Assembly (NCBI GenBank): GCA_963755915.1
Contig: CAVWLP010000003.1
Location: 160,001-224,000 of the forward strand
Direction of reading: 5' to 3'
Source: an uncultured Phycisphaerales bacterium
GTDB taxonomy: Bacteria > Planctomycetota > Phycisphaerae > Tepidisphaerales > Tepidisphaeraceae
Length of the DNA stretch: 64,000 nucleotides
Shown in pieces: positions 8-15,557 of this stretch (position 1 is the stretch's first letter; every line of letters begins with the position of its first letter). The position numbers and the translations under genes were made by a program. Under the pieces are notes generated by a model. It saw only the letters and a list, made by a program, of their open reading frames with translations. It was not told the DNA's origin and searched no databases.

Positions 8-1707
8 TCAGGTTTTCCATAGGCGGTTCGAGCCAAAACGAAAGCGGATGAGTCTAGAAGTTGGGAATGGAAGTGTCAAAAATGAGATTGGGGTGCCGCG
101 TTTTACTTTTGCGATTGTCCTGAGATACTGAAGCGAAGAGCTTTTCATCTGGGGAGCATAGCTCAGCGGTAAGAGCAGGGGTCTCATAAACCCTTGGTCC
201 CTGGTTCGAATCCAGGTGCTCCCATTCAAAGTTTCGCTCGGAACGGTCGAGATTTCCCCGGTGGTTCCGGGCGAATCTTCCTGTTGGCTTTCAGCGCGTT
301 TGACTCCGCGGGACTCCGCCGAGGTACGCCGAAATTCGCACCCAGGTGACAAGTCAGGTGACAAGCGATTTCCGGCTGTAACAGGCATTCCATCGCTGCC
401 CGTTTTCTTGGCTTGTTGAACGACCGGCGAAAGGTTCGGCAGCACGTCAAGAGCCGACGCCAACGCACCCCGGTAGACATGCGAATATCGATCCATGGTC
501 AGGGTGATGGTGGAATGACGGGCGAGGGTCTGGGCGGTCTTGGGATGCACGCCGCCAGCCGCCAAATTGGAAATAAACGTATGGCGCAGGGCATGGAAAT
601 CGGCCACGCGATTGGCGTGGTCCCGGTATGTGAGAAATAGCGAAGCCTCTCGCTTTAGGCGATTCTCGTCCGTCTCGGCTGATTCGATCCAATCTTGGCG
701 TGCATTATCCAAATCTCGCCGGAACATTTTGGACACGGCTGTTTCTGATGGCACGTCGAATGCCTTGGCATGCGGCATCTTTCCCGCAAAATGCACCTTG
801 AGCACAGCCACGGTTGCTGGCCTTAAAGGCAAAACATCCTCCCGGCGGTTCTTCGCATAGGCCGCGGCGATGGTCACGGAAGGCTCGCGATCTTCAAGCC
901 GAAAGCTTGACGGCGTAAGACTTCGCAGTTCGCCGGCCCGTAGACCTGTTTCGACCGCCAGCCGATAGAGAAGCGATCTCGCCTCACCGGTCATGTCGTA
1001 ATGCTCCGAACCCTTGACTGTAGCATCCAAGAGCCACCGCAGTTCGTCGGCCGACAGTGCTCGGCGGTCGTGGCGCCGATCCGTTCGCACGTTCAAGCCG
1101 CGTAAGTGAGCCAATGGTGACTCCGCCGCGCGGCCATCTTGAACCATCCACCGCGCGAATTGTTTTGCCGCTTGAAGGTAGAAATTTGACGTTTGGGACG
1201 AGATTCCACGCTCGATCACCCCATCGGCGTTGCGCTGATCCTGCCGCATGCCGCTAAGAGCCGCCTGTAGCTTGCTCGCCGACAGGTCCGACCAGAATTG
1301 AAACCCGCATTCCTCAAACATTTTGCGCGCCGACGAGCAGTCTTTTCGGCATGATTCTGCGTGCTCCCCTTGGCCAATAGCGAGGACTTCCAGTCGTCCA
1401 AATGGACTGCGAGCGGATTGCCAGCAGCAACTTTCGCGGCGGAAAGAATTCCCCACTTGGCCAATTTTGCGCGAATAATTCGCGGCATCGCCTCCACGGA
1501 CCGTCCCAAGTCCGGTGTCATTACATCACTGCCGGCATGTATGCTGTTGAGACGATCAATGACCTTGGCCAGGGAATCGCTGGCGCGTCGATCTTCAAAC
1601 AGCGGCAGTCGGCGCAAGGTCTCGGAATAATCGACAAAAACGGCGTACCATTTCTCCGATAACTTGTGCTGTCCATCGGTCCAATATGGCATCTTTCGCA
1701 CTTTCAT
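8..1707 (-). CDS. tyrosine recombinase/integrase (one frameshift near 1330; frame reads through att and the tRNA)
   Basis: Catalytic motifs TGLRAGEL, K (YAKN), FHALRHTF, LARHS..LTMDRY in ORF 8..1456. N-terminus MKVRKMPYW is in ORF 1216..1752, ATG at 1707. Confidence 0.9.
152..224 (+). tRNA. tRNA with CAT anticodon (probably Ile2/lysidine type; elongator Met not excluded)
   Basis: Cloverleaf GGGAGCA/TGCTCCC-A, D arm GCTC/GAGC, anticodon arm GGGGT-CTCATAA-ACCCT, T arm CCTGG-TTCGAAT-CCAGG. G1-C72 is paired, so not an initiator. No encoded CCA. Confidence 0.93.
176..226 (+). repeat. att site at the intact-tRNA end
   Basis: caggggtctcataaacccttggtccctggttcgaatccaggtgctcccatt; 47/51 identical to 10441-10491. 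Confidence 0.92.
343..371 (+). repeat. candidate integrase arm-type sites (tandem GGTGACAAG), left arm
   Basis: caggtgacaagtcaggtgacaagcgattt; 28/29 identical to 10362-10390; both copies are just inside the att repeats. Confidence 0.7.
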
Positions 1708-1711
1708 CGCC

Positions 1712-2131
1712 TCATCCCTTCCTGGCGTAATGCGGGCGGCTGGCAACAACATCTAGATTTAGGGCCACCAGCATCGCTTCGATATAGCTCAGGCCAAGCT
1801 GCCGAAATCCCCGGAGAAATTCGTACACCGCCGATTGAGTGAGAGTTGGGCAGTTTTCTTGAGCGGCCTTCCAAAGCTTGTATCGCGTCATTTTTCGGCG
1901 GCCAAGCTCTTGCAGAATTGCCGAACGTATACGGCTCGGCAGCGGTTTTATAATTCGCCCATTCGCATCGCGTCGAATGGGATTAGATCCCATCGTCGGC
2001 TCACGGTCACGCTTGACTCGCGCATCCGATCGGGCCATCGCCTTGCGCAATCGGTCCAAGTCAGCAGGGGTCGTTGGTGGAAGCTCATCGTACTTTTTAT
2101 GAACGATGCCGCCGGCGGATTTGTTCGACAT
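1712..2131 (-). CDS. putative antitoxin with C-terminal Cro/XRE-like HTH
   Basis: Overlaps the 3' end of brnT. N-terminal 'DLDRLRKAM' segment plus HTH-like 'MTRYKLWKAA..LTQSAVYEFLRG..LSYIEAML'. Confidence 0.6.
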   Translation of the reverse strand: MSNKSAGGIVHKKYDELPPTTPADLDRLRKAMARSDARVKRDREPTMGSNPIRRDANGRIIKPLPSRIRSAILQELGRRKMTRYKLWKAAQENCPTLTQSAVYEFLRGFRQLGLSYIEAMLVALNLDVVASRPHYARKG

Positions 2132-2433
2132 AGGCCCTCTTTTCTTCGGAGTTGGCAGCGCGCTGCGCTGATGATGCGTGTGATCTGCTCTTCTTCGTCT
2201 GTGCGCTCCGTCCATGAGATTCGTGTGATAAGGTCGCGATTTTCAGGGTGCGAGCCGAATGTGCAATATCGGTCTTCTTTATCGCTGTGGTCATCATCAT
2301 AATCCTCGACCAAATAAAGGTCGCCATCCTCCTGCCCCAACACCTTGGCCGCATCGTCAAACGATACGCGATGATGGCGTATATTCGACGCGGCTTTTCT
2401 CGCGTCCCACTCGAACCGCCAATGGAGCCGCAT
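2097..2433 (-). CDS. brnT: BrnT-family type II toxin (frameshift near 2160)
   Basis: FEWDARKAASNIRHHRVSFDDA, DHSDKEDRYCTFG, RIISA then RAANSEEKRAY in the adjacent frame. Confidence 0.85.
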
Positions 2434-2506
2434 ATGCCCTTTCCAACGCCGCCATTACAGGCAGCATATTACCTATATCGGTAGCAATCAAGTCAAAATC
2501 GACAAT

Positions 2507-2809
2507 TTATGCCCGCCGGCGATCTTTGCCGTTTGCCAACCACCGATCCCGTGGTGGGCTGCCTGAGTTGAACCAATCAATCAACTCCTGACGTGACCAT
2601 CGCACGGCCCTGCCCATTCGGACGGGCAAGGGCCCAAGCCTGCCAGTCTTGTGCAGAGAGTAAAAGTGCGATTCGGAAACTCCCAGAAGCGCCGCCGCCT
2701 CGGCCGCCGATACGCCAAGCGATTCGGTACGCGTGTGATATCGGAGATGAGTCGGCAGTCCCGTCTCATCGAACAACCTGGCGGGCTGTTTTTGCAGCGT
2801 CGATGCCAT
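2507..2809 (-). CDS. AlpA/excisionase-like winged-helix protein
   Basis: AAEAAALLGVSESHFYSL..GRLGPLPVRMGRAVRWSRQELIDW; upstream of and co-oriented with the integrase. Confidence 0.8.
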   Translation of the reverse strand: MASTLQKQPARLFDETGLPTHLRYHTRTESLGVSAAEAAALLGVSESHFYSLHKTGRLGPLPVRMGRAVRWSRQELIDWFNSGSPPRDRWLANGKDRRRA

Positions 2810-2921
2810 GGCCTTGCCTCTGATTTCCGCCGCACAGCGGAGCCACAGCAGATGTTATTATCGTCATTAACAATGTCAAACAGAATTTGCGGAGTTTCCA
2901 GGATTGCGGTGCGCTCGCTGG

Positions 2922-3149
2922 TCAATCCTCGGTTGGCGTGACGCCGAATCGTTTATGGTGCTTCTCGGCAATTGCAGAGCGGATGGCGGGCTTCGATTCC
3001 AACCAGTGCAGGATCAACGCTTCGAGCACGTGCTTGGGATTCGCAAGATTCCTAGCGCAATCGTACTCAAAGTCGTCAAATAGCTTCTGGTTGAACCGGT
3101 AGGTTCGCTGTACCGTCTGAAGTTCCGGGGAGATGCGGGGGCGTGCCAT
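2922..3149 (-). CDS. small hypothetical protein, possibly ribbon-helix-helix DNA binding
   Basis: 75 aa, MARPR start, strand-helix-helix pattern; purine-rich RBS-like AGGAAGGAG upstream. Confidence 0.5.
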   Translation of the reverse strand: MARPRISPELQTVQRTYRFNQKLFDDFEYDCARNLANPKHVLEALILHWLESKPAIRSAIAEKHHKRFGVTPTED

Positions 3150-3912
3150 TCTATCTAGCTCCTTCCTGAGATCATCATGGTAACCATCTATTCCAAGCGT
3201 ACCATGTTTTTAACGTTAACAACTTACGCGAGGGTAATCGCCTTTAACGGCATTCGGTGTCCTCCCAGGCACAAAGTTTCTCTTCAACCCCGCAGCCAGA
3301 AGGGGGTTGAAGAGAAACGGCGAATAGCAGAAGGACCGAGCGCAGGCCCTGCCGTCGCGCAGGGATGCAAGACGTGCTGCCACGCGCAGGCGGTACTCCG
3401 TCGAGCATGGCGGCCGGCTTGTCGCCCGGAGCAGGCTGGGCGCAGCGGCGGAACGTCAGCCGAGTTGCGAGAAACAGTCTGACCTCGGCGGATTTCGCGG
3501 GGCACTATATGACATCGATGACGATTGAATCGTTCCGCAGCACAGTCTTTCCCGCAGCCACTCACAGCGGACGGCTTTCGCGCGGACGGGGTGGCGGTCA
3601 ATCTGGATGGCCCGGAGGGAGGGAGATTGTCGGCCGCCCCGGCCGCGTACAAGGGAGCCATGAGGTGGGAGCGGATTTTAGGGATAGGCTTTGCATACGC
3701 ATTGAACGAATTCAGGGTTTCTACATGTTGCGCAAGAAGTCCTGGCCCGACATAGCAAGCCTTTGCATTCTTCACAGGAACTACCCGGAATTGATTCTGG
3801 CCAAACAATAAGCCCATTGGGCGAATCGACAGGTGACTTTGAGCCAACGACTCGTTGCACTAAATCGCCAAACAATTGATCCACAGACCAAGAGGCACCC
3901 AAAGCGGGGGCT

Positions 3913-4218
3913 CGCAATGCCCGCAGCCGCCGAACTGTTGCCGGTCGGGGGACTAACGTAAGCCGAGAGGGTGTACCCGCCGTTTACCAAAAATCCACTG
4001 GACTGTACCGTTTCGGATTGCGATTCGAAATCGAGTTGACCTGCTTGGATACTTCCCGATGAGCCGCTCAATGTCCAGGTAGTGCCATTCAAAGTGGCAG
4101 GTCCCAAGCTCGCCGTCGCACCGATAGCAGTGTAGACCCAGTTTGGCGCGGCAATATTATCGACCGTAAATGCACCGGTGGGAAGCTGAACGCTGGAATT
4201 GGACTGAATCCTAACCAA
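3913..4218 (-). pseudogene. fragment of a large beta-rich extracellular protein
   Basis: Ser/Thr/Gly-rich text (GTTWTLSGSSG, GYTLSAYVS, AAAGI) with no signal peptide; boundaries approximate. Confidence 0.4.
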
Positions 4219-4278
4219 ATATTCGAAACCCCCCAGTGGGACCTAAGCGTCGAGGCAACGCCTCCGCAACTGACCACT

Positions 4279-5547
4279 TTGGCCGATCAGCCACTTGGTA
4301 ACAATGATTCCCTGACATTTAGCGTTGGGGCGGAAGCGGAAGCTGATATCGGACCGGTATCGGCGGATTGGCAATACACAATCGCAAGCTGGACGCCGTT
4401 CGCGATTCCCTCGGGATCGAGCACGTTCAAGCTCTTGCCCCCTCAAGGGCTTGGGCAATTCACAACAAGCTTTGGTATCGGGAGCGACCAGGTCTTTCCG
4501 TCGTTTCTTCTGTCCGTCTTCGGACAGGCTCAATTATCTGGTCAATTTGAAGTTCCTCTAACAGGCACGACGCGAGCCGTGATTAGCACGTCCTCTGTCG
4601 CCGCCGTCGCCGGCCAACCGTTGCCTCCAATTACCGTGACGCTCGAAGATGCGCTTGGGAATGTGGAAACCGACGACGATTCGAGTGTTACTCTTTCGGT
4701 TGCCCCCGATCCCGTTCTCTACGGCACGACGACGGTTAATGCGGTCGATGGTGTTGCGACCTTCGATAATCTCTACCTCGATACCAGCGGCAACTATAGC
4801 TTTGTCGCGACAGACGCTACCGATGGCATCACGACCATCGTCTATCCAAGCCCTGTTACTGTCGCCGCGTCAAAAGCAACCCATCTCGCGTTCATAGAAG
4901 GGCCAAGCGACACAACGGCCGGAAACGCGATCAGCCCCGCGGTGATGGTGGCTGTCGAAGACCAATACGGCAACATCGTTACGACCAACAATTCCAGGGT
5001 AAATCTAAATCTCGTCGGCGGCCCATGCGAAGCATTCCTGTTGGGCACGGCAAACCTCCAGGTCCAAAATGGCGTGGCCACGTTCAAGGGTTTGTCGATT
5101 CTCAAGGCCGGCGATTATTCGCTCAAGGCAACGGATCGCGGTCTGGCCGGCGCCACATCCGACACCTTTGCTGTGACGCCGGGCCCGGCCGTTCAAATGC
5201 GATTTGTGGATCAATTCCCGTGGCTGGATTCCTCCGGCAAAGATTTCAACGTGCAGGTTGCGCTTTACGACAAATACGGCAACCTGGCAACGAACGACAC
5301 TTCCAGCGTCACGCTGTCACTGGGCGCTCATCCAAAGAGCGGAGTATTGACCGGCAATATAACCGCCGCGGTGGTGAATGGCATTGCCACCTTCGACAAT
5401 CTCTCGCTGAGCGAAGAGGGGTTGTACACATTTGTGGCAACTGACAGCGGCGGAATTCCGGCGATTAACTCGCGGCCCTTCCTGGTAGGCGATTGGAAAT
5501 TTTGGCGGGATTGTGATCGTAATGAATCACTCCTCCAGGATATATGA
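4279..5547 (+). CDS. Ig-like repeat surface protein, 5'-truncated
   Basis: Three repeats of 'V.leD.yGN..T.d.ssVtL...GvATFdnL.l...G.Y.f.ATD'; no signal peptide or convincing start. Confidence 0.7.
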   Translation: MADQPLGNNDSLTFSVGAEAEADIGPVSADWQYTIASWTPFAIPSGSSTFKLLPPQGLGQFTTSFGIGSDQVFPSFLLSVFGQAQLSGQFEVPLTGTTRAVISTSSVAAVAGQPLPPITVTLEDALGNVETDDDSSVTLSVAPDPVLYGTTTVNAVDGVATFDNLYLDTSGNYSFVATDATDGITTIVYPSPVTVAASKATHLAFIEGPSDTTAGNAISPAVMVAVEDQYGNIVTTNNSRVNLNLVGGPCEAFLLGTANLQVQNGVATFKGLSILKAGDYSLKATDRGLAGATSDTFAVTPGPAVQMRFVDQFPWLDSSGKDFNVQVALYDKYGNLATNDTSSVTLSLGAHPKSGVLTGNITAAVVNGIATFDNLSLSEEGLYTFVATDSGGIPAINSRPFLVGDWKFWRDCDRNESLLQDI

Positions 5548-5675
5548 TTGCCGTAACCTCCGCTCGAAATTGCTTCTCTTAATGATATGGCGCGAAGTTC
5601 AACTAATCGGGTTCTTCCGGGCCTCGCGACGGATACGGCCGCATCACATCGGCCGCTTAAGAAAAGGAAAACATC

Positions 5676-6584
5676 ATGATCATGCCTGCCATGAAATGGC
5701 TGCGAAGCGCCGCCTGCGCGGCGGCTTTATTATCCCTCTTCGATGGAACATTCCCGACGGTCGCGGTTGCCAATCCGACCATCAGTTCCGTTCAACTGAC
5801 CGGCAATCCGGGCGACTATACCATTACGATCGACGGCGCTGGATTCGGCGGCTCGCCCGTCTCACCAGGTTATGTCGGAGATACTTCTGATTTCCGGATC
5901 GCTGATGCGGCGCAGTTAGGCTTCGGTGAATGGGGATTCACAGGTGACGCAAAAACACTCACCTATCAAACCTGGTCGGACGGCCAAGTCGTCCTTTCCG
6001 GATTTGGCGGTTCCCCGGCCGATGCTCTTGCGCTTGCGATCTGGAATCCCTCGACGGGTTTGGGCGCAACCTGGGGTGGAAACGTGCCGCCCACCAATTC
6101 CTCCACCCCGCAAATATCCAGCGTGACGTTCTCCGGCTCCGGCGCCAATACCACGATGACGATCACAGGTTCCGGCTTTGGCAGCTCCCCGTTCTCCGGC
6201 CCATTCACCGGCGATTTGAACGATCTCCAGTTCCTCGATTTCCGCACGCCCAGCAATGGAGCTTCGTCTTTATTTGGCGCGGGCGACGAGGGCTTTGGCG
6301 ATATCTCCCCCTACAGCGTCACCCTCAATTACCAGTCCTGGTCGAATAATCAGATCGTCATCACCGGCTTCGGCGGAACCTATGGACAAAACGGCGCGAC
6401 CCTTGACGTCGGCGATCCGGTTACCGTCACGCTGTGGAACTCCGCGGATTCAAACGCTGGCGGCCCGCAAACCGCTTGGGGCGGAATCGTCACCGTGCCG
6501 GAACCCGCATCCGTGGGTTCGCTTATCGGCGGCTTTTGCGTACTGCTCGTTCGTCGCCACCGGTGCAAACAAACCCAGAACTAA
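5676..6584 (+). CDS. PEP-CTERM protein with two IPT/TIG-like repeats
   Basis: Signal peptide; duplicated 'P.ISSV..G....TI.G.GFG.SP...Y..WS..Q....GFGG...WN...WGG'; ends VPEP, TM helix, RRHR. Confidence 0.85.
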   Translation: MIMPAMKWLRSAACAAALLSLFDGTFPTVAVANPTISSVQLTGNPGDYTITIDGAGFGGSPVSPGYVGDTSDFRIADAAQLGFGEWGFTGDAKTLTYQTWSDGQVVLSGFGGSPADALALAIWNPSTGLGATWGGNVPPTNSSTPQISSVTFSGSGANTTMTITGSGFGSSPFSGPFTGDLNDLQFLDFRTPSNGASSLFGAGDEGFGDISPYSVTLNYQSWSNNQIVITGFGGTYGQNGATLDVGDPVTVTLWNSADSNAGGPQTAWGGIVTVPEPASVGSLIGGFCVLLVRRHRCKQTQN

Positions 6585-6618
6585 CCGCGTCGCGGCACAC
6601 GTTGTCTGGAATTGAGGA
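6581..6618 (+). repeat. 38-bp intergenic direct repeat, copy 1 (copy 2 at 7221-7258)
   Basis: ctaaccgcgtcgcggcacacgttgtctggaattgagga vs ctaaccgagtcgcggcgcgcgttgtctgcaattgcgga, 33/38 identical. Confidence 0.8.
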
Positions 6619-6630
6619 AAGGACTTTGCC

Positions 6631-7224
6631 ATGTTCACGAATACTAATGCCATGTCTTTCTGGTCATCCTTCCTGTGGTGGTGGTCATCAATGCCACTTT
6701 TGTGGGAGGGGTTATTCGTCCTTTGGATTGTTTGTCTCTGGCGGGTTTTCGCCAAAGCTGGCCAGCCCGAATGGGCCGCGCTCATCCCCATCTACAACCT
6801 CGTCGTACTGCTGAAGGTTTGTCGGCGACCGATTCGATGGATCGTCGATCTCTTTTTCGTCCCGTTACTGGGTGTCATTGCCGCAATTGTAGTTATGGTA
6901 ATATTCACTCAACGAGCGGTCAGCGACCAGGACCCAGCCACCGCGGCGATTGGCGGAGTTCTGGCGTTCGTGCTGTATGTCTGCGGATTCGTCTACGGAT
7001 TGGTCTACGGGATTCGTCTTTTGATCTCACTGGGTCGAGTCTTTGGGAAGGGCGCGGCCTTCATCATTGGGCTCATCATTCCATTTACTTCAATTATATT
7101 TTGGGCGATTTTGGCCTTTGATGGCTCCGATTACCGAGGTGAAGGGTCGACTTCGCCTAAGTTGGCTCCGGTGGCTGGGATTCCAGCAGTCTCAAGGCCC
7201 TTACCTTCTGCGAGTCCGAGCTAA
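6631..7224 (+). CDS. DUF5684-like membrane protein
   Basis: WRVFAKAGQPEWAALIPIYN and FGKG..F.IGL..ILAF motifs; several TM helices. Confidence 0.75.
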   Translation: MFTNTNAMSFWSSFLWWWSSMPLLWEGLFVLWIVCLWRVFAKAGQPEWAALIPIYNLVVLLKVCRRPIRWIVDLFFVPLLGVIAAIVVMVIFTQRAVSDQDPATAAIGGVLAFVLYVCGFVYGLVYGIRLLISLGRVFGKGAAFIIGLIIPFTSIIFWAILAFDGSDYRGEGSTSPKLAPVAGIPAVSRPLPSASPS

Positions 7225-7267
7225 CCGAGTCGCGGCGCGCGTTGTCTGCAATTGCGGAGGTGCTTTT

Positions 7268-7633
7268 ATGCGGTATAGGATTCTTCCAATCATCATTCTT
7301 GCGATTGTTGGAGCCGGCGGATTCGTGATGCTGAAGGAGTCCAATCGTCCGGCTGTCGTTACTCCGGCAGCCGAGCATATGATTCTACACGGAAGTTACG
7401 TCTCCACCGACCCTAGGCTTGGCTATTTGATTGATTTTGATAAATATCCGGGCACCGCCTGGTTTCTCGCTGGTCAGGGAGGCGCAATGGCCTCTGCGTA
7501 CACCGTGAATGGAAATACGCTTCACCTCGCCATGTGCATACTGGACCTTACGCTGATGCCGGACGGTACGATCCAATGTCCTCCCTGCTTCGGTCCCATG
7601 CAATCAATCGTCATCCTCAAAAAGCGTGGCTAG
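7268..7633 (+). CDS. small exported or membrane-anchored hypothetical protein
   Basis: GGAGG RBS, MRYRILPIIILAIVGAGG hydrophobic N-terminus. Confidence 0.6.
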   Translation: MRYRILPIIILAIVGAGGFVMLKESNRPAVVTPAAEHMILHGSYVSTDPRLGYLIDFDKYPGTAWFLAGQGGAMASAYTVNGNTLHLAMCILDLTLMPDGTIQCPPCFGPMQSIVILKKRG

Positions 7634-7669
7634 TTGCAATCGCCCGCTGCTCTGTCTCGAGAAGCAACC

Positions 7670-9125
7670 ATGTCAAATATCCAAAAAGCAATTAGCATCA
7701 CCAATGCACTTCTGCTCGCGACGGTTGCGGTTTTGTTTTTCCTGCCGCAGTGCCGGATCGAATCTCAAGCCTATCAATCCACACTCACGGGATTGAATCT
7801 CACCTTGGGCACGACTCCGTATACGCATGTCGAGGGCATGTCCGACGCGGATTACCAAAAGCTTGTTGACATGATCCAGGGCATCCGACAGACAGTGGGT
7901 CAGCCTAAACTTCAAGATTACACCAACCCGGCATTCCTGGGCGTGCTCTTGTTGTCGGCATCGCGGCCATCGCATTCTTCAGTGATGTCAGTAAAGCGCA
8001 AATCAATTCGTTCGGTGTTCGGGTCAGCCGTGATCTTCGGGACTGTGCCGTGGGGGGGGTGCTGATTCTGTTCATCATCTACGGGATAAGCGGCTTCAGT
8101 TCCGAGCAAGCAATGAAAGATCAGAACGCACAGTGGGAAAAGACGATCGCGCAACTCAAGACGGATACCGCAAACAACCAAGCGCAGAATGCCGCAGCTA
8201 TGGGGGCCGATCTTGCGCGAGCTTGGGGAGCGAGCGCCGCGTCGATGCAGGATACGGCGCGAGCCTCGATGGAGCGGATGATCGCCACGATTCAAAAAAC
8301 TGTATGGTTTGACTTGGGCTTCGCGCTATCAGGCACCGCTTTATGCCTGGCGATTGCCGTGCGGTTCACTGGTAAGGTGCCCACGACGTTGGCAGATCGT
8401 CCGATGTCGTCCGCATCCACGGCCGGACAGTTGTCAGAACATTCCGCGAGCGCCGATGCATCTACACATTCCGGTGGGACATGGGATTCGATTAAGACTC
8501 GCACAATGCAATTCGTCGAAACAGCCGAAGCCAAGGCTGCAGAGGCCGTTGAAGCGGGTAAGGTTGAGGTACGACTACATCACGAAAAATCGGCTGTTAG
8601 CGCATGTAATAAGCAGTTGGATCAACTCGCACTTGAATGCGGCGCGTCCGCAGCCGACGTCTCAGCTTTCTCGGATTCGACGCTTCAAGCGCTGCGCCAA
8701 AAAGCTCTGGATGCGCGACAAAAGATGAAAGAAAGCCAATCGCAGCACGATGCGGCGGTGGAGGAGTTGGGCGCATTGACGCGAAGGCAGACCCCACAAA
8801 GGCAGCAGAATTGACCGCCTGGATCAAGGCGACGGATGCCACTTTGCGCCGTCAACAGCACGATTTGGACGCGATTTTGAAAGACTTGGGAACTCGCGTG
8901 CTGGCGGCAAATCTTGCCGAACCCAGGCTTGCCGGATTCTACCGACAGCGGAACGAAATCCAACTGCAAGCCGATGAGCACTCTGCTAACATCGCACGAT
9001 TAGAACAGGAACAGGTTGGACACAAGACATCCCTTGGGTTCAACACGAGAAAAGCAATCATCATCGGCGGCGCAGCCGTTGTCGCGCTTGTGATTTTAAT
9101 ATGGATCGTCACGGAATCGATGTAA
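7670..9125 (+). CDS. membrane protein with coiled-coil region (at least two frameshifts; may be more than one gene)
   Basis: Protein-like text passes between ORFs 7634..8065, 8050..8814 and 8637..9125; TM segments and an Ala/Gln-rich helical region. Confidence 0.5.
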
Positions 9126-9200
9126 GGCGCGGTACACACCGGCGAGCAATTTGCCTGCGCTGCCGGGCAAATCGCGAATGTAAAGTGAGGAGATGTTTCC

Positions 9201-10235
9201 ATGCGACAACTGATACTTGCAATGTTGATCGTGACAACTCTTGGCGCGTTGGCGATAGCCCAACGCACCGCCGATTTGTCTTCTCCGCCGCCGCCGCCGC
9301 CGCCTTCTCCTCCTGCTCCTTCTCCCGATTCTCAACCACGTGGACTCGTCCATTTTGACTTTTCCTCGATGAATATGGATCAGGTAAATGTATGCGCGGC
9401 AGCGACATTGTCGTGCATTCCAAACCCTGAATCTCGCGATCGCCAGCAGAAGCTCGCGATGAATCGCATCGCACAGCTCAGCAAGTGGACCTCCAGTTTT
9501 AAGGCTGCAGGTGGCAAAGATATTTTCGCCGTGATTGGAGGCGGGAATGGACAGATTGAATTGGACGAGGTGATTGTTCCGCTTGACGGCGCCAATCCCG
9601 ACGAATTGGAGAAGGCGATCCGTGCATTCAACTCGCTGGAATGGGTGTCGATCCCGCAGCAGAGTAAGCTCGTGGGAAAATCTTTGGTCTTTTCGTGGCC
9701 GGGGTCGGAAAAAACGGACAATCCGTTGGCCCACCCACCGCCCGAATGGGCCGACGCCTTGGGCCCTGGCAGAAGCGCGGCAGTTCGTGCTGCGCTTCCG
9801 GGAAATCTGCTAAATTGGACTCCGTCCGGTTTTATTTATTGCATGATGACCGGCGAATCTCCGCTCGGCGATGCTCCTTCGAACTCGCCTTTGGATTCCA
9901 TATCAGTGACTTCGATTTCTCTCAGTATCTCACCGAGGGGGTCTGTCGCTTGGAGTTTTCAGTGTGCGGATGCCAAGTCAGCCGATACCCTCTCAGATTA
10001 CATGAATGCTGGCTTCGAGAACTGGCGTGAGAAGATCAAGGAGAGCGCCGCGGATGAAAAGGGAGTCAACCCGCAGCAAAACGCCATGATAGCAGCGGTC
10101 AACGATCAATTCAGCAAGCTCCTAGCCATAATGAAGCCTAAAGCGGTTGGCTCACAAGTTACGACCATGTTGGATCAAGATGCCGTCGGCAGCTTCATCC
10201 TTCTCGCGACAGGATCGTTAGCGGGGGTTCAATAA
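9201..10235 (+). CDS. secreted hypothetical protein with polyproline linker
   Basis: GAGGAG RBS, signal peptide, SSPPPPPPPSPPAP. Confidence 0.7.
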   Translation: MRQLILAMLIVTTLGALAIAQRTADLSSPPPPPPPSPPAPSPDSQPRGLVHFDFSSMNMDQVNVCAAATLSCIPNPESRDRQQKLAMNRIAQLSKWTSSFKAAGGKDIFAVIGGGNGQIELDEVIVPLDGANPDELEKAIRAFNSLEWVSIPQQSKLVGKSLVFSWPGSEKTDNPLAHPPPEWADALGPGRSAAVRAALPGNLLNWTPSGFIYCMMTGESPLGDAPSNSPLDSISVTSISLSISPRGSVAWSFQCADAKSADTLSDYMNAGFENWREKIKESAADEKGVNPQQNAMIAAVNDQFSKLLAIMKPKAVGSQVTTMLDQDAVGSFILLATGSLAGVQ

Positions 10236-10248
10236 ACGATGTCTTATA

Positions 10249-10452
10249 TTATTCTACCTTTCGCGTAGCTTGCACCACGCCGACGATCATCTTACGCACG
10301 TCAATTGGCAATGTCGGCCATGCCATGGTCACCGTGGTTAGGTCAGCGTCTTGCTGCGCGGCAGGTGACAAGTCGGGTGACAAGCGATTTTCCTCGGTGG
10401 GCGCAAGTTGTTGATTCTCCTGCTCGTTGCGACCATCATTCAGGGGTCTCAT
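10249..10452 (-). CDS. detached alternative C-terminus of the integrase (DADLTTVTMAWPTLPIDVRKMIVGVV)
   Basis: Begins inside the att repeat with MRPL, the same codons and frame as the integrase at the other att copy. Its only upstream ATG is the reverse complement of the anticodon. Confidence 0.65.
   Translation of the reverse strand: MRPLNDGRNEQENQQLAPTEENRLSPDLSPAAQQDADLTTVTMAWPTLPIDVRKMIVGVVQATRKVE
10362..10390 (+). repeat. candidate integrase arm-type sites, right arm
   Basis: caggtgacaagtcgggtgacaagcgattt, matches 343-371. Confidence 0.7.
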
Positions 10453-10491
10453 AAACCCTTGGTCCTCGGTTCGAATCCGAGTGCTCCCATT
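10441..10491 (+). repeat. att site (displaced tRNA 3' half)
   Basis: Anticodon arm, T arm and 3' acceptor strand only; no D arm or 5' acceptor strand upstream. Confidence 0.92.
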
Positions 10492-14099: not shown

Positions 14100-15557
14100 C
14101 TACAACAATGGGGAGAGCAACGAAACGGCGTTGTCGGCGTATTCGCTGATGGCGGGGCGCTTTTCCCATTCGTTGGAAGTTAGCTGACGGGAGCGGGAGA
14201 GATAGATGTTTTGTATATCGCGGAGGCGCTGGGTGATGGGCTGGCCGTAGAGGAGGACGCTGATCTCGAAATTGAGGGTGAAGCTGCGGACGTCGAGATT
14301 GGCGGAGCCGAAGAGGGCGAAGGCGTCGTCAACCGTCGTCGTTTTGGAATGAAGGAGGCCGCCCTCATAGAGATGGATTTTGACCCCGCCGCGGAGGAGG
14401 GAGCAGTAATGGGATCGTCCGGCGGCGGCGGCGAAGAAATGGTCGGCGACAAAGGGGAGAATGAGCTTTACATCGACGCCGCGATCGGCGGCCATCATGA
14501 GGGAGAGGATGGTTGCCTCATCGGGAACGAAATAGGGGGTGGTTAGGATAAGCTGATGCTGGGCGGACTGGATGGCGGCGAGGAGAAGGCGGCGATAGGT
14601 GAGGTCGCGGTTGGTGGGGCCGGTGGGAACGACCTGGGCGGGGAATTCCTGATCGGCGGGGTTGCTGGAAGGCGAATCCTGGCGCTGGGGATAGGGGATG
14701 TCGATTTCTTCGCCGGTTTCGAATGCCCAGTCTTCGGCAAAGACGGAGGCGACCTCGCCGACGATGGGACCGGTAAAACGGGCGGAGACGTCGACCCAGG
14801 GATTTCCGTGGCGGCCGCCGTAGTCGGGGTTGATGATGTTCTGGCTGCCGACATAGGCGATCTGGCCGTCGATGACGGCGAGCTTGCGATGGTTGCGCAG
14901 GTCCATGCGGGCGAGGCGGCGCCGGATGGGGGTGACGGGGAGAGCGGCGGCGACGTGAACGCCGTCGGAAATCAGCTCGCGGGAAAGGCCGTGAGGCTGG
15001 AAGAATTTTCTGGAGGCGAGGGCATCGACGAGGAGACGGCATTTGACGCCGCGGCCGACGGCGCGTTTGAGCTCGAGGGCGACGGCGCGGGCGGAGGAGT
15101 CGCCGGCGAAGATGTAATAGAGGAGGTTGACGGACTGTTTTGCGGCGGCGATATCGGCGCAGAGGCGGTCGCGGAAGATGCCGGAATCGGGGACGAAATC
15201 GAGACGGTTGCCGGCGAGGACGGGCATGCCGCTGATTTTTTCCGCCTGGCGGATCATGGGCTGGTAAGAGGGGGTGGCGTCGGGGGTAGTCGCGTGGGCG
15301 GCGCGTTCGGCGTGGCGCTGGGGATCGCGGAAGCGGGCGATGATGTCGCGATGGCGCTGGGTTCGGCGCGGGCCGAGACGGCTCTCGCCGAGCAGGAGAT
15401 ATAGAACCACCCCGATATACGGATGCAGAAAGATAATTCCGAGCCAGGCGACTGAAGCCCCCGGCGCGAACTGGCGGCGGAGGACGACGGTGACCATGAT
15501 CGCCCGGATACTCCAGCCGACGATGGCATAAGAGAGATAAAAGAGAAACCAGCCCAT
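14100..15557 (-). CDS. cls: cardiolipin synthase
   Basis: Two N-terminal TMs and two HKD motifs (RNHRKLAVIDG, LHSKTTTVDD). Confidence 0.92.
   Translation of the reverse strand: MGWFLFYLSYAIVGWSIRAIMVTVVLRRQFAPGASVAWLGIIFLHPYIGVVLYLLLGESRLGPRRTQRHRDIIARFRDPQRHAERAAHATTPDATPSYQPMIRQAEKISGMPVLAGNRLDFVPDSGIFRDRLCADIAAAKQSVNLLYYIFAGDSSARAVALELKRAVGRGVKCRLLVDALASRKFFQPHGLSRELISDGVHVAAALPVTPIRRRLARMDLRNHRKLAVIDGQIAYVGSQNIINPDYGGRHGNPWVDVSARFTGPIVGEVASVFAEDWAFETGEEIDIPYPQRQDSPSSNPADQEFPAQVVPTGPTNRDLTYRRLLLAAIQSAQHQLILTTPYFVPDEATILSLMMAADRGVDVKLILPFVADHFFAAAAGRSHYCSLLRGGVKIHLYEGGLLHSKTTTVDDAFALFGSANLDVRSFTLNFEISVLLYGQPITQRLRDIQNIYLSRSRQLTSNEWEKRPAISEYADNAVSLLSPLL

Follow-up and report, generated by a model that had tools for sequence, protein, structure and literature searches.

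The Myxococcus phage Mx8, which was described in the 1990s, is the closest described system in design to the integrase gene considered here. According to the parts of two articles that deal with Mx8, its attP site is located in the int coding sequence downstream of the region for the catalytic domain, and integration provides the gene with a new 3' end (PMC6070905, PMC4383910); the altered Int is characterized in the relevant section of a review as changed in specificity and not as inactivated (PMC6070905). A recombination site within the open reading frame (ORF) is likewise described, in the sections concerned, for the integrases of SSV1, pTN3 and pT26-2, the genes of which are partitioned upon integration (PMC8371274, PMC7253208). 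For the SSV type, integration is stated to part the N-terminal region of the enzyme from its catalytic domain, the two remnants being inactive pseudogenes; these integrases carry the domain PF16795 and are described as an exclusively archaeal family (PMC8371274). The present work concerns an integrated island in a tRNA-Met gene of an uncultured Phycisphaerales bacterium, located in a 64-kb window, i.e. the whole stretch of DNA that was analysed and in which positions are counted from the first letter. Sequence comparisons confirmed that attP of this island lies inside int, so that integration would sever a conserved tail from the integrase (Int) and excision would restore it, and the observation is real, robust and general beyond the window.

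The site of Mx8, like that of the planctomycete family described here, lies inside int and past the catalytic domain, with IntP as the phage form and IntX as the prophage form of the enzyme. Mx8 also shares with the window island a tRNA gene as target and an excisionase or excisionase-like gene beside int, and the GenBank record of Mx8 Int contains a tRNA-like peptide about 110 residues before the end. The likeness is an analogous one of layout without detectable sequence relation: a BLASTP comparison of Mx8 Int with P0042, a relative encoded by a naturally unsplit gene, gave a best E value of 1.4, neither the hidden Markov model (HMM) of the family nor that of the tail matched Mx8 Int, and a tblastn search of phage records yielded no Mx8 match. 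Moreover, Mx8 lacks the AWPxLP tail that the planctomycete family possesses and represents one phage lineage, whereas the present family is large, extends across the Planctomycetota and includes small islands as well as at least one phage. The original prediction, made from the letters of the window, had named both Mx8 and SSV1 as parallels. The first holds with respect to layout, whereas the second is loose, because the split of SSV-type genes parts the N-terminal region from the catalytic domain, which stays whole in the window Int. Indeed, the 'suicidal' integrases of SSV1, pTN3 and pT26-2 have only the position of the site inside the gene in common with the window Int, in which PF00589 was the only domain found and the split follows the catalytic tyrosine.

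Two further systems share single elements of the design. The mycobacteriophages BPs, Brujita and Charlie establish integration-dependent immunity by means of an attP site inside the repressor gene, the lost C-terminal piece being a degradation tag. As in the window, attP lies in a gene, and integration removes a C-terminal segment and changes the behaviour of the protein, but the gene that is cut encodes a repressor and not the integrase itself, and the planctomycete tail is unlike an ssrA-type tag. The heterobivalent integrases of the lambda type resemble the family in the N-terminal arm-binding domain and the arm sites on both sides, both of which are predicted in the family, the tRNA-type core and the excisionase partner, a candidate one in the window, whereas int of lambda ends before attP and has neither a translated attP linker nor a detachable tail. 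A description of the planctomycete integrase family was not found in the open-access literature, supplements and subscription journals being outside this search.

The features that define the locus in the window are as follows.

152..224, plus strand: tRNA-Met(CAT), called by ARAGORN; rebuilt at attL, the 3' part from about position 201 on being island DNA
176..226: left copy of the att repeat; the exact block 176-200 holds the crossover
201..10465 (approximate ends): island of about 10.3 kb with int, a BrnT-type toxin-antitoxin region, a helix-turn-helix (HTH) gene and genes for surface/PEP-CTERM-like and membrane proteins
8..1707, minus strand: integrase gene in its integrated form, with the ATG at 1707, the catalytic Tyr codon at 485-487 and the stop codon at 8-10
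8..175, minus strand: host-derived, unselected C-terminal extension of the integrated Int, 55 residues after MRPL
227..470, minus strand: P-arm half of attP, translated as a linker after the catalytic domain
345-353 and 357-365, plus strand: two tandem predicted arm-type sites GGTGACAAG of the P arm, period 12, with the antisense translation LSPDLSP
10249..10452, minus strand: detached C-terminal piece of int, 67 amino acids (aa), starting with MRPL inside the right repeat
10264..10350, minus strand: conserved two-helix tail module (D.DL..V..AWPxLP.DVRKMI.GVV.AT), defined by alignment, codon-position test and predicted helices
10364-10372 and 10376-10384, plus strand: two tandem predicted arm-type sites GGTGACAAG of the P' arm
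10441..10491: right copy of the att repeat (attR), the displaced original 3' part of the tRNA gene

The two copies of the direct repeat agree in 47 of 51 nucleotides (nt), including the first 25, in which 176-200 equals 10441-10465. The four mismatches represent two compensating pairs in the T stem. Since these compensating differences lie further on, the crossover can be placed in the anticodon-arm block, and the left copy can be regarded as the working tRNA rebuilt with island DNA. The G+C content of about 0.54-0.56 within the island rises to 0.60-0.65 to its right, where the flank consists of ordinary host genes encoding a PAS histidine kinase and a PLD-family enzyme.

The integrase gene is located at the left edge of the island with its 3' end facing the tRNA, and the deduced protein matches PF00589 (E 5.1e-15; 56.1 bits versus a cut-off of 27.1). 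The codon of the catalytic tyrosine was located by alignment to a relative; the residues R372, H373, H395 and Y405 (numbering of P0002) are invariant in 23 relatives, and the window Int contains the corresponding stretches ..HALRHTF.. and ..DRYSH... The frame 8..1456 on the minus strand (482 aa) is free of stop codons from the catalytic Tyr codon to position 8. As the original prediction had proposed, it crosses the att repeat, which splits the gene about 85 codons beyond the tyrosine, reads the antisense strand of the tRNA and then continues past MRPL into the host flank for the 55 residues that had been claimed. The integrated integrases of relatives likewise stop at arbitrary places past their tRNA genes.

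A break of the int frame near 1329, which places the N-terminal 115 residues in another frame, had been missed in this first reading. The tblastn alignment to P0002, the closest relative (77% identical), falls into two pieces, with the frame change at about 1320-1347. Short-read contigs from four runs of one study were available for comparison, and all three covering runs contain one extra base behind 1329, the resulting sequence being in agreement with the relatives. Accordingly, the break is attributed to an indel of the assembly and not to a dead gene, and the int gene of the window is most probably intact. No stop codon occurs between 226 and 450, the interval in which a stop would have refuted the original prediction, and the short-read contigs listed no differences in the regions 226-480 and 10249-10491 where they cover them.

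At the far end of the island, ORF 10249-10452 opens with the same four codons, MRPL, as the int frame at the left repeat and in the same register, as originally reported; its ATG is the antisense of the CAT anticodon of the tRNA. When the island ends were joined by script, int and this ORF yielded a single stop-free frame with 63 residues after MRPL, which reproduced the circle proposed earlier.

The generality of this arrangement was examined in relatives of the window Int. A protein search yielded 3444 matches at E<=0.001 (8000 scored), and 28 of the best 120 relatives were inspected. These proteins contain an LSPxLSP-like stretch past the catalytic domain, followed by a translated tRNA (mostly antisense, in some cases sense) and an arbitrary end. 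In species-representative genomes, 564 of 600 pattern matches encode an integrase relative, and 79 loci were kept. The open frame of int overlaps a tRNA gene in 64 of them, reading right through it in 45 and stopping inside in 19. The other 15 loci comprise one with a tRNA gene nearby that is not overlapped, four without a tRNA gene despite at least 400 nt of following sequence, eight with too little sequence and two that failed the match criterion for the catalytic region. The tRNA genes of the 64 loci received ten different ARAGORN labels and are oriented antisense to int in 54 cases and sense in 10.

The detached piece was searched for in the same manner. The 67-aa ORF produced 35 matches at E<=0.001 in the whole library, two of which (P0127 and P0147) were unrelated repeat proteins and were dropped, while the remaining 33 ORFs measure 38-139 aa and end in the motif. 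The statement in the original prediction that such peptides are common as small ORFs of planctomycetes was thus correct. Many of these small ORFs open with a tRNA-derived peptide followed by LSPxLS, and they have no conserved start. A tail HMM, applied at E<1 to the 79 loci and the window translated in six frames, matched 17 sources (16 of the 79 loci and the window), all of the matches being located upstream of int and on its strand. An exact repeat of 16-63 nt ties the upstream edge of the tail to the tRNA gene at the int end in 16 of these 17 sources, and each of the 16 in silico excision products leads from int into the tail without a stop or a change of frame. A search that started from upstream repeats of at least 16 nt and was blind to the tail detected 16 loci, 14 of which run on into a tail. 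With respect to the 10-kb flank carried by the loci, four closer relatives with larger islands were searched genome-wide, and the tails were found 12.7-27 kb upstream and join in frame in 4/4 cases.

The genome from which the window was taken contains three more split pairs (L010/L003, L012/L006 and L014/L008), all of which join in frame. The respective islands of about 8.5-16 kb occupy tRNA-Gly and tRNA-Val sites and encode integrases that are 26-34% identical to the window Int; two of them use a sense-oriented tRNA with a 5' fragment. A further candidate pair of this genome, L016/L002, was rejected, as it has no common att repeat. In total, the frame is kept in 23 of 23 elements in which both att copies and the tail were located, so that a chance frame relation, the outcome against which the proposed HMM check was directed, is excluded. 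The core has been replaced by tRNA segments of at least nine kinds in both orientations, each time without loss of the frame. An uninterrupted int frame is present in 75 of 77 integrated copies. Metagenome contigs, searched with a narrower alignment (9 of 34 tails), contributed 23 loci, all of them split and none unsplit. With the tail HMM, matches were obtained in 67 of the 401 genomes sampled from the Planctomycetota and in 59 of the 288 genera. Accordingly, the central claim of the original prediction, that attP lies within int, that the C-terminus is swapped and that a conserved helical tail is regained on excision, applies to the window as well as to its relatives.

ORF 10249-10452 might also be considered an independent small gene or the relic of an older integrase from a decayed tandem island, with an accidental frame relation. 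It has its own ATG in the window, and both tandem arrays (L059) and orphan tails (L002) occur. This explanation is nevertheless extremely improbable in view of the 23 elements with different tRNA genes in both orientations that join in frame without a stop, the missing conserved start, the many stubs that open with a tRNA-derived peptide and the existence of natural unsplit genes.

These unsplit genes encode complete proteins composed of Int, linker and tail. Among the 120 listed relatives of the window Int, P0042, P0109 and P0114 were identified with the tail HMM, along with six unsplit genes among the 120 proteins listed for the P0156 family, to which P0157 can be added. In P0042, the order is LSPGLS, an antisense-tRNA peptide, LSPDLS and the tail. 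The P0156 gene is located on a 49-kb phage-like IMG/VR contig (L161, 2609-4207) between the genes for a helicase and the small terminase subunit, no tRNA gene is present within 4 kb of it, and the integrase of the unsplit relative was assigned to phrog_1 integrase. This contig is a candidate for a free genome in the attP state and would fit the expectation for an unintegrated phage.

Two observations concern tail ORFs that stand in other contexts. Locus L002 of the window's own genome (1474-1809, minus strand) is an orphan ORF of 111 aa with a well-conserved tail and a hydrophobic N-terminal stretch, and may be a relic or a recruited small protein. In L098 and L099, tail ORFs at about 1018-1784 and about 2587-3353 on opposite strands overlap each other, which suggests two islands head to head or an inversion between them.

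The nucleotide sequences of the tails and of the adjoining linker differ in the type of constraint. In the core of 28 unique tails, the codon positions show differences of 0.352, 0.274 and 0.523. The conserved Leu, Pro, Arg, Val and Gly residues are each encoded by 3-5 synonymous codons, and the Trp is invariant. These data indicate that the tail of about 35 residues (AWPxLP..DVRKMI) is under selection at the protein level. In the LSPxLSP stretch, the LSP codons are almost fixed (TTG TCA CC.), and the codon positions differ about equally (0.468, 0.454 and 0.528), so that 'LSPDLSP' is regarded as a by-product of DNA sites and not as a protein motif. The second 'NRLSPDLSP' stretch consequently represents translated arm-type DNA sites and not protein homology. 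The DNA-level constraint on this adjoining stretch might be extended to the tail, the conservation of which would then reflect protein-binding sites of the P' arm irrespective of translation. We regard this as very unlikely, since the third codon position varies most, synonymous codons are used for the conserved residues and the frame is open throughout.

The 64 kb contain four copies of the 9-mer GGTGACAAG, against 0.30 copies expected, in a single orientation and exclusively at the two arms; on the circle, the core is thus flanked by two tandem sites on either side. A repeat common to both arms is present in the 16 elements, mostly in tandem with a 12-nt period and at similar distances (-120 to -170 and +37 to +120). 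Shuffling of the sequences (200 replicates) never produced a repeat as long as the one observed in 8 of these elements, whereas 1-21 of 200 replicates did so in the other eight; in L021, L035 and L041 (10-21 of 200), the arm repeat is not above chance. The motif varies by subfamily, including CTTGTCACC, GCTTGGCG, ACTGTACCGGA and others, which fits predicted arm-type sites that co-evolve with the arm-binding domain. Judged from these sequence features, the linker of about 120 residues is a translated attP, consisting of predicted arm sites, a tRNA-like core and again arm sites.

The structure of the natural unsplit protein P0042 was predicted with AlphaFold2 from an alignment of 59 rows. The body of the model has pLDDT values above 90, and the N-terminal domain is predicted to contain three strands and a helix (E2-11, E17-30, E36-40 and H45-64). 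Residues 440-556 have pLDDT values below 50 and no secondary structure, indicative of a disordered linker, and the tail forms two predicted helices (559-570 and 573-587) with a pLDDT of about 89-90. In fold comparisons, the model was most similar to Brujita Int and full-length lambda Int, the lambda chains matching over 395-415 columns. Scores of 0.00 and 0.00, which carry no weight in either direction, resulted when the body of Int (A1, residues 1-430) and the tail (A2, residues 30-67) were modelled as a complex.

The Atlas clusters nearest to the tail contain 'hypothetical proteins' of 38-54 aa from Planctomycetota, and integrases from at least three divergent subfamilies terminate in the tail module. 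Among six long open frames with a tail match in other genomes, five look like spurious G+C-rich frames or unrelated proteins, and one is primase-polymerase-like. The latter, a 481-aa frame at 1269-2711 on the plus strand of L150 (G221:C40), resembles by eye a primase-polymerase with a HAD-like domain and ends in a tail-like motif (E 1.4e-8). The tail could also be envisaged as a portable peptide, i.e. a tag for partner binding, localisation or stability, the loss of which would alter the level or the partners of Int and not catalysis. The spread over divergent subfamilies, the primase-polymerase-like frame closed by the module and the position of the tail behind more than 100 residues of predicted disorder agree with this idea. 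Nearly all occurrences examined are nonetheless int genes or stubs, the primase-like case being single, and we consider this explanation improbable.

The cargo of the island includes two regions that are listed separately.

1712-2433: BrnT-type toxin-antitoxin region (BrnT/BrnA-like pair), island cargo
2507..2809, minus strand: excisionase-like HTH protein, candidate directionality factor, matching PF12728 HTH_17 with 35.6 bits versus a cut-off of 27

The HTH protein also reached 26.1 bits with TIGR01764 'excise', which is under the cut-off of 28.8. The cargo protein encoded at 5676-6584 on the plus strand has a weak IPT/TIG match below the Pfam cut-off and a C-terminal anchor that looks PEP-CTERM-like by eye; a repeat-domain surface protein is encoded next to it by ORF 4279-5547. 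Within the latter, ARAGORN called a 95-nt 'tRNA-Pro' at 5275-5369 on the minus strand, which is probably a false call. Phage structural genes were not seen among the island genes. Outside the island, a weak integrase-like match at 15189-15356 proved to be the PLD-family gene. Further single-base indels relative to the short-read contigs (up to three runs) are located at 2163, 3675, 3732, 7959/7960 and 8768; as the assembly is indel-prone, the ORF calls of the island, including the BrnT/BrnA-like pair, are unreliable.

The data are probably best explained by a tRNA-Met island with attP in the 3' third of int and Int isoforms that depend on the state of the element. The gene on the excised circle, as joined in silico, encodes a predicted N-terminal arm-binding domain, a core-binding domain and a catalytic domain, followed by the linker of about 120 residues and the tail of about 35 residues. 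Upon crossover in the core, the integrated Int keeps the catalytic domain and trades the second arm and the tail for arbitrary residues encoded by the host, and the tail stays behind as a stub without a start at the opposite island end. Full-length Int would thus be made only by the excised element. As the tail is conserved as a protein though mostly severed, selection on it must act in the excised phase, and this points to the integration reaction. The most likely role of the tail is to promote or license the integrative reaction (attP x attB), either through oligomerisation or through contact with a partner subunit on which it docks; synapsis, subunit docking, partner binding and stability are candidates for the step concerned. 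The truncated Int of the chromosome may be less active, restricted to excision and in need of the HTH excisionase of the island, so that the recombination state would set which isoform is made, as reported for IntP and IntX of Mx8. That the swap regulates the activity of Int, as originally proposed, is what we infer from this combination of features.

A different outcome of the same layout would be a suicidal design as in the archaeal SSV type, in which Int cannot do without the tail, the truncated enzyme of the chromosome is inactive and exit requires full-length Int from a related incoming element. The protein-level conservation of a tail that is always lost on integration, the presence in the window's genome of four such elements that could help each other and the missing excision signal in the contigs are in line with such a design. 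On the other hand, the catalytic and DNA-binding domains stay whole, unlike in SSV Int (PMC8371274), int is intact in nearly all integrated copies, and the altered Mx8 Int is reported, in the pertinent part of the review, not to be inactivated (PMC6070905). Since these domains and frames are kept and the island has its own excisionase-like HTH gene, an isoform switch is favoured over a dead enzyme, and the suicidal design is judged unlikely.

Several observations argue against a switch between isoforms of a dedicated integrase module or reduce the weight of the supporting counts. The one source with a tail and no repeat, L024, has a 5'-truncated int frame, and so has L018, which lacks a tail on its contig. 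Of the two loci with a repeat and no tail, L033 is unexplained, and the repeat of L059 belongs to a second, tandem integrase. The tail of L091 has an internal frameshift, and neither a tRNA gene nor a partner integrase is located near the orphan tail L002 in its own genome. A binomial figure for the 23 of 23 elements would overstate the case because the elements are related and the samples are not independent. The tail has no relative in Pfam or NCBIfam, and the Protein Data Bank (PDB) provided only two non-significant matches (E 0.6). The motif at the end of the L150 frame implies that the module may not be specific to integrases. Finally, neither the circle junction nor the empty site was seen in the contigs of the four runs, which as contigs cannot show rare forms.

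A more specific version of the state-dependent switch can be put forward tentatively, as a possibility that we rate well below the general explanation. The two-helix tail would then be a portable 'excised-state licence'. Since the circle is the only form in which Int can carry it, the tail would serve as a directionality factor built into the enzyme: full-length Int would integrate, and tail-less Int would be confined to excision and would depend on the HTH protein for it. At least three integrase subfamilies of planctomycete phages and islands, and perhaps also replication proteins of these elements, would have captured the module, and the attP region of about 300 bp would double as the disordered linker. 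As a bolder extension, the stranded stub might sometimes be expressed, in the window from the anticodon-derived ATG, and might interfere with incoming related integrases.

The comparison of the window with its relatives turns the curiosity of a single phage into a rule for a phylum, the Planctomycetota. It accounts for the odd, non-homologous C-termini annotated for these integrases and for a class of small 'hypothetical proteins', which are severed ends of genes, and it provides island finders with a precise marker of the far boundary. With two natural isoforms, defined (predicted) arm sites and a candidate excisionase, the family represents a clean experimental system for the question of how a tyrosine integrase might recognise the integrated or the excised state of the element that encodes it. 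If the tail indeed licenses integration in the excised state, the family would present a rare example of a regulatory region in which the constraints of coding and of DNA sites overlap over the full length.

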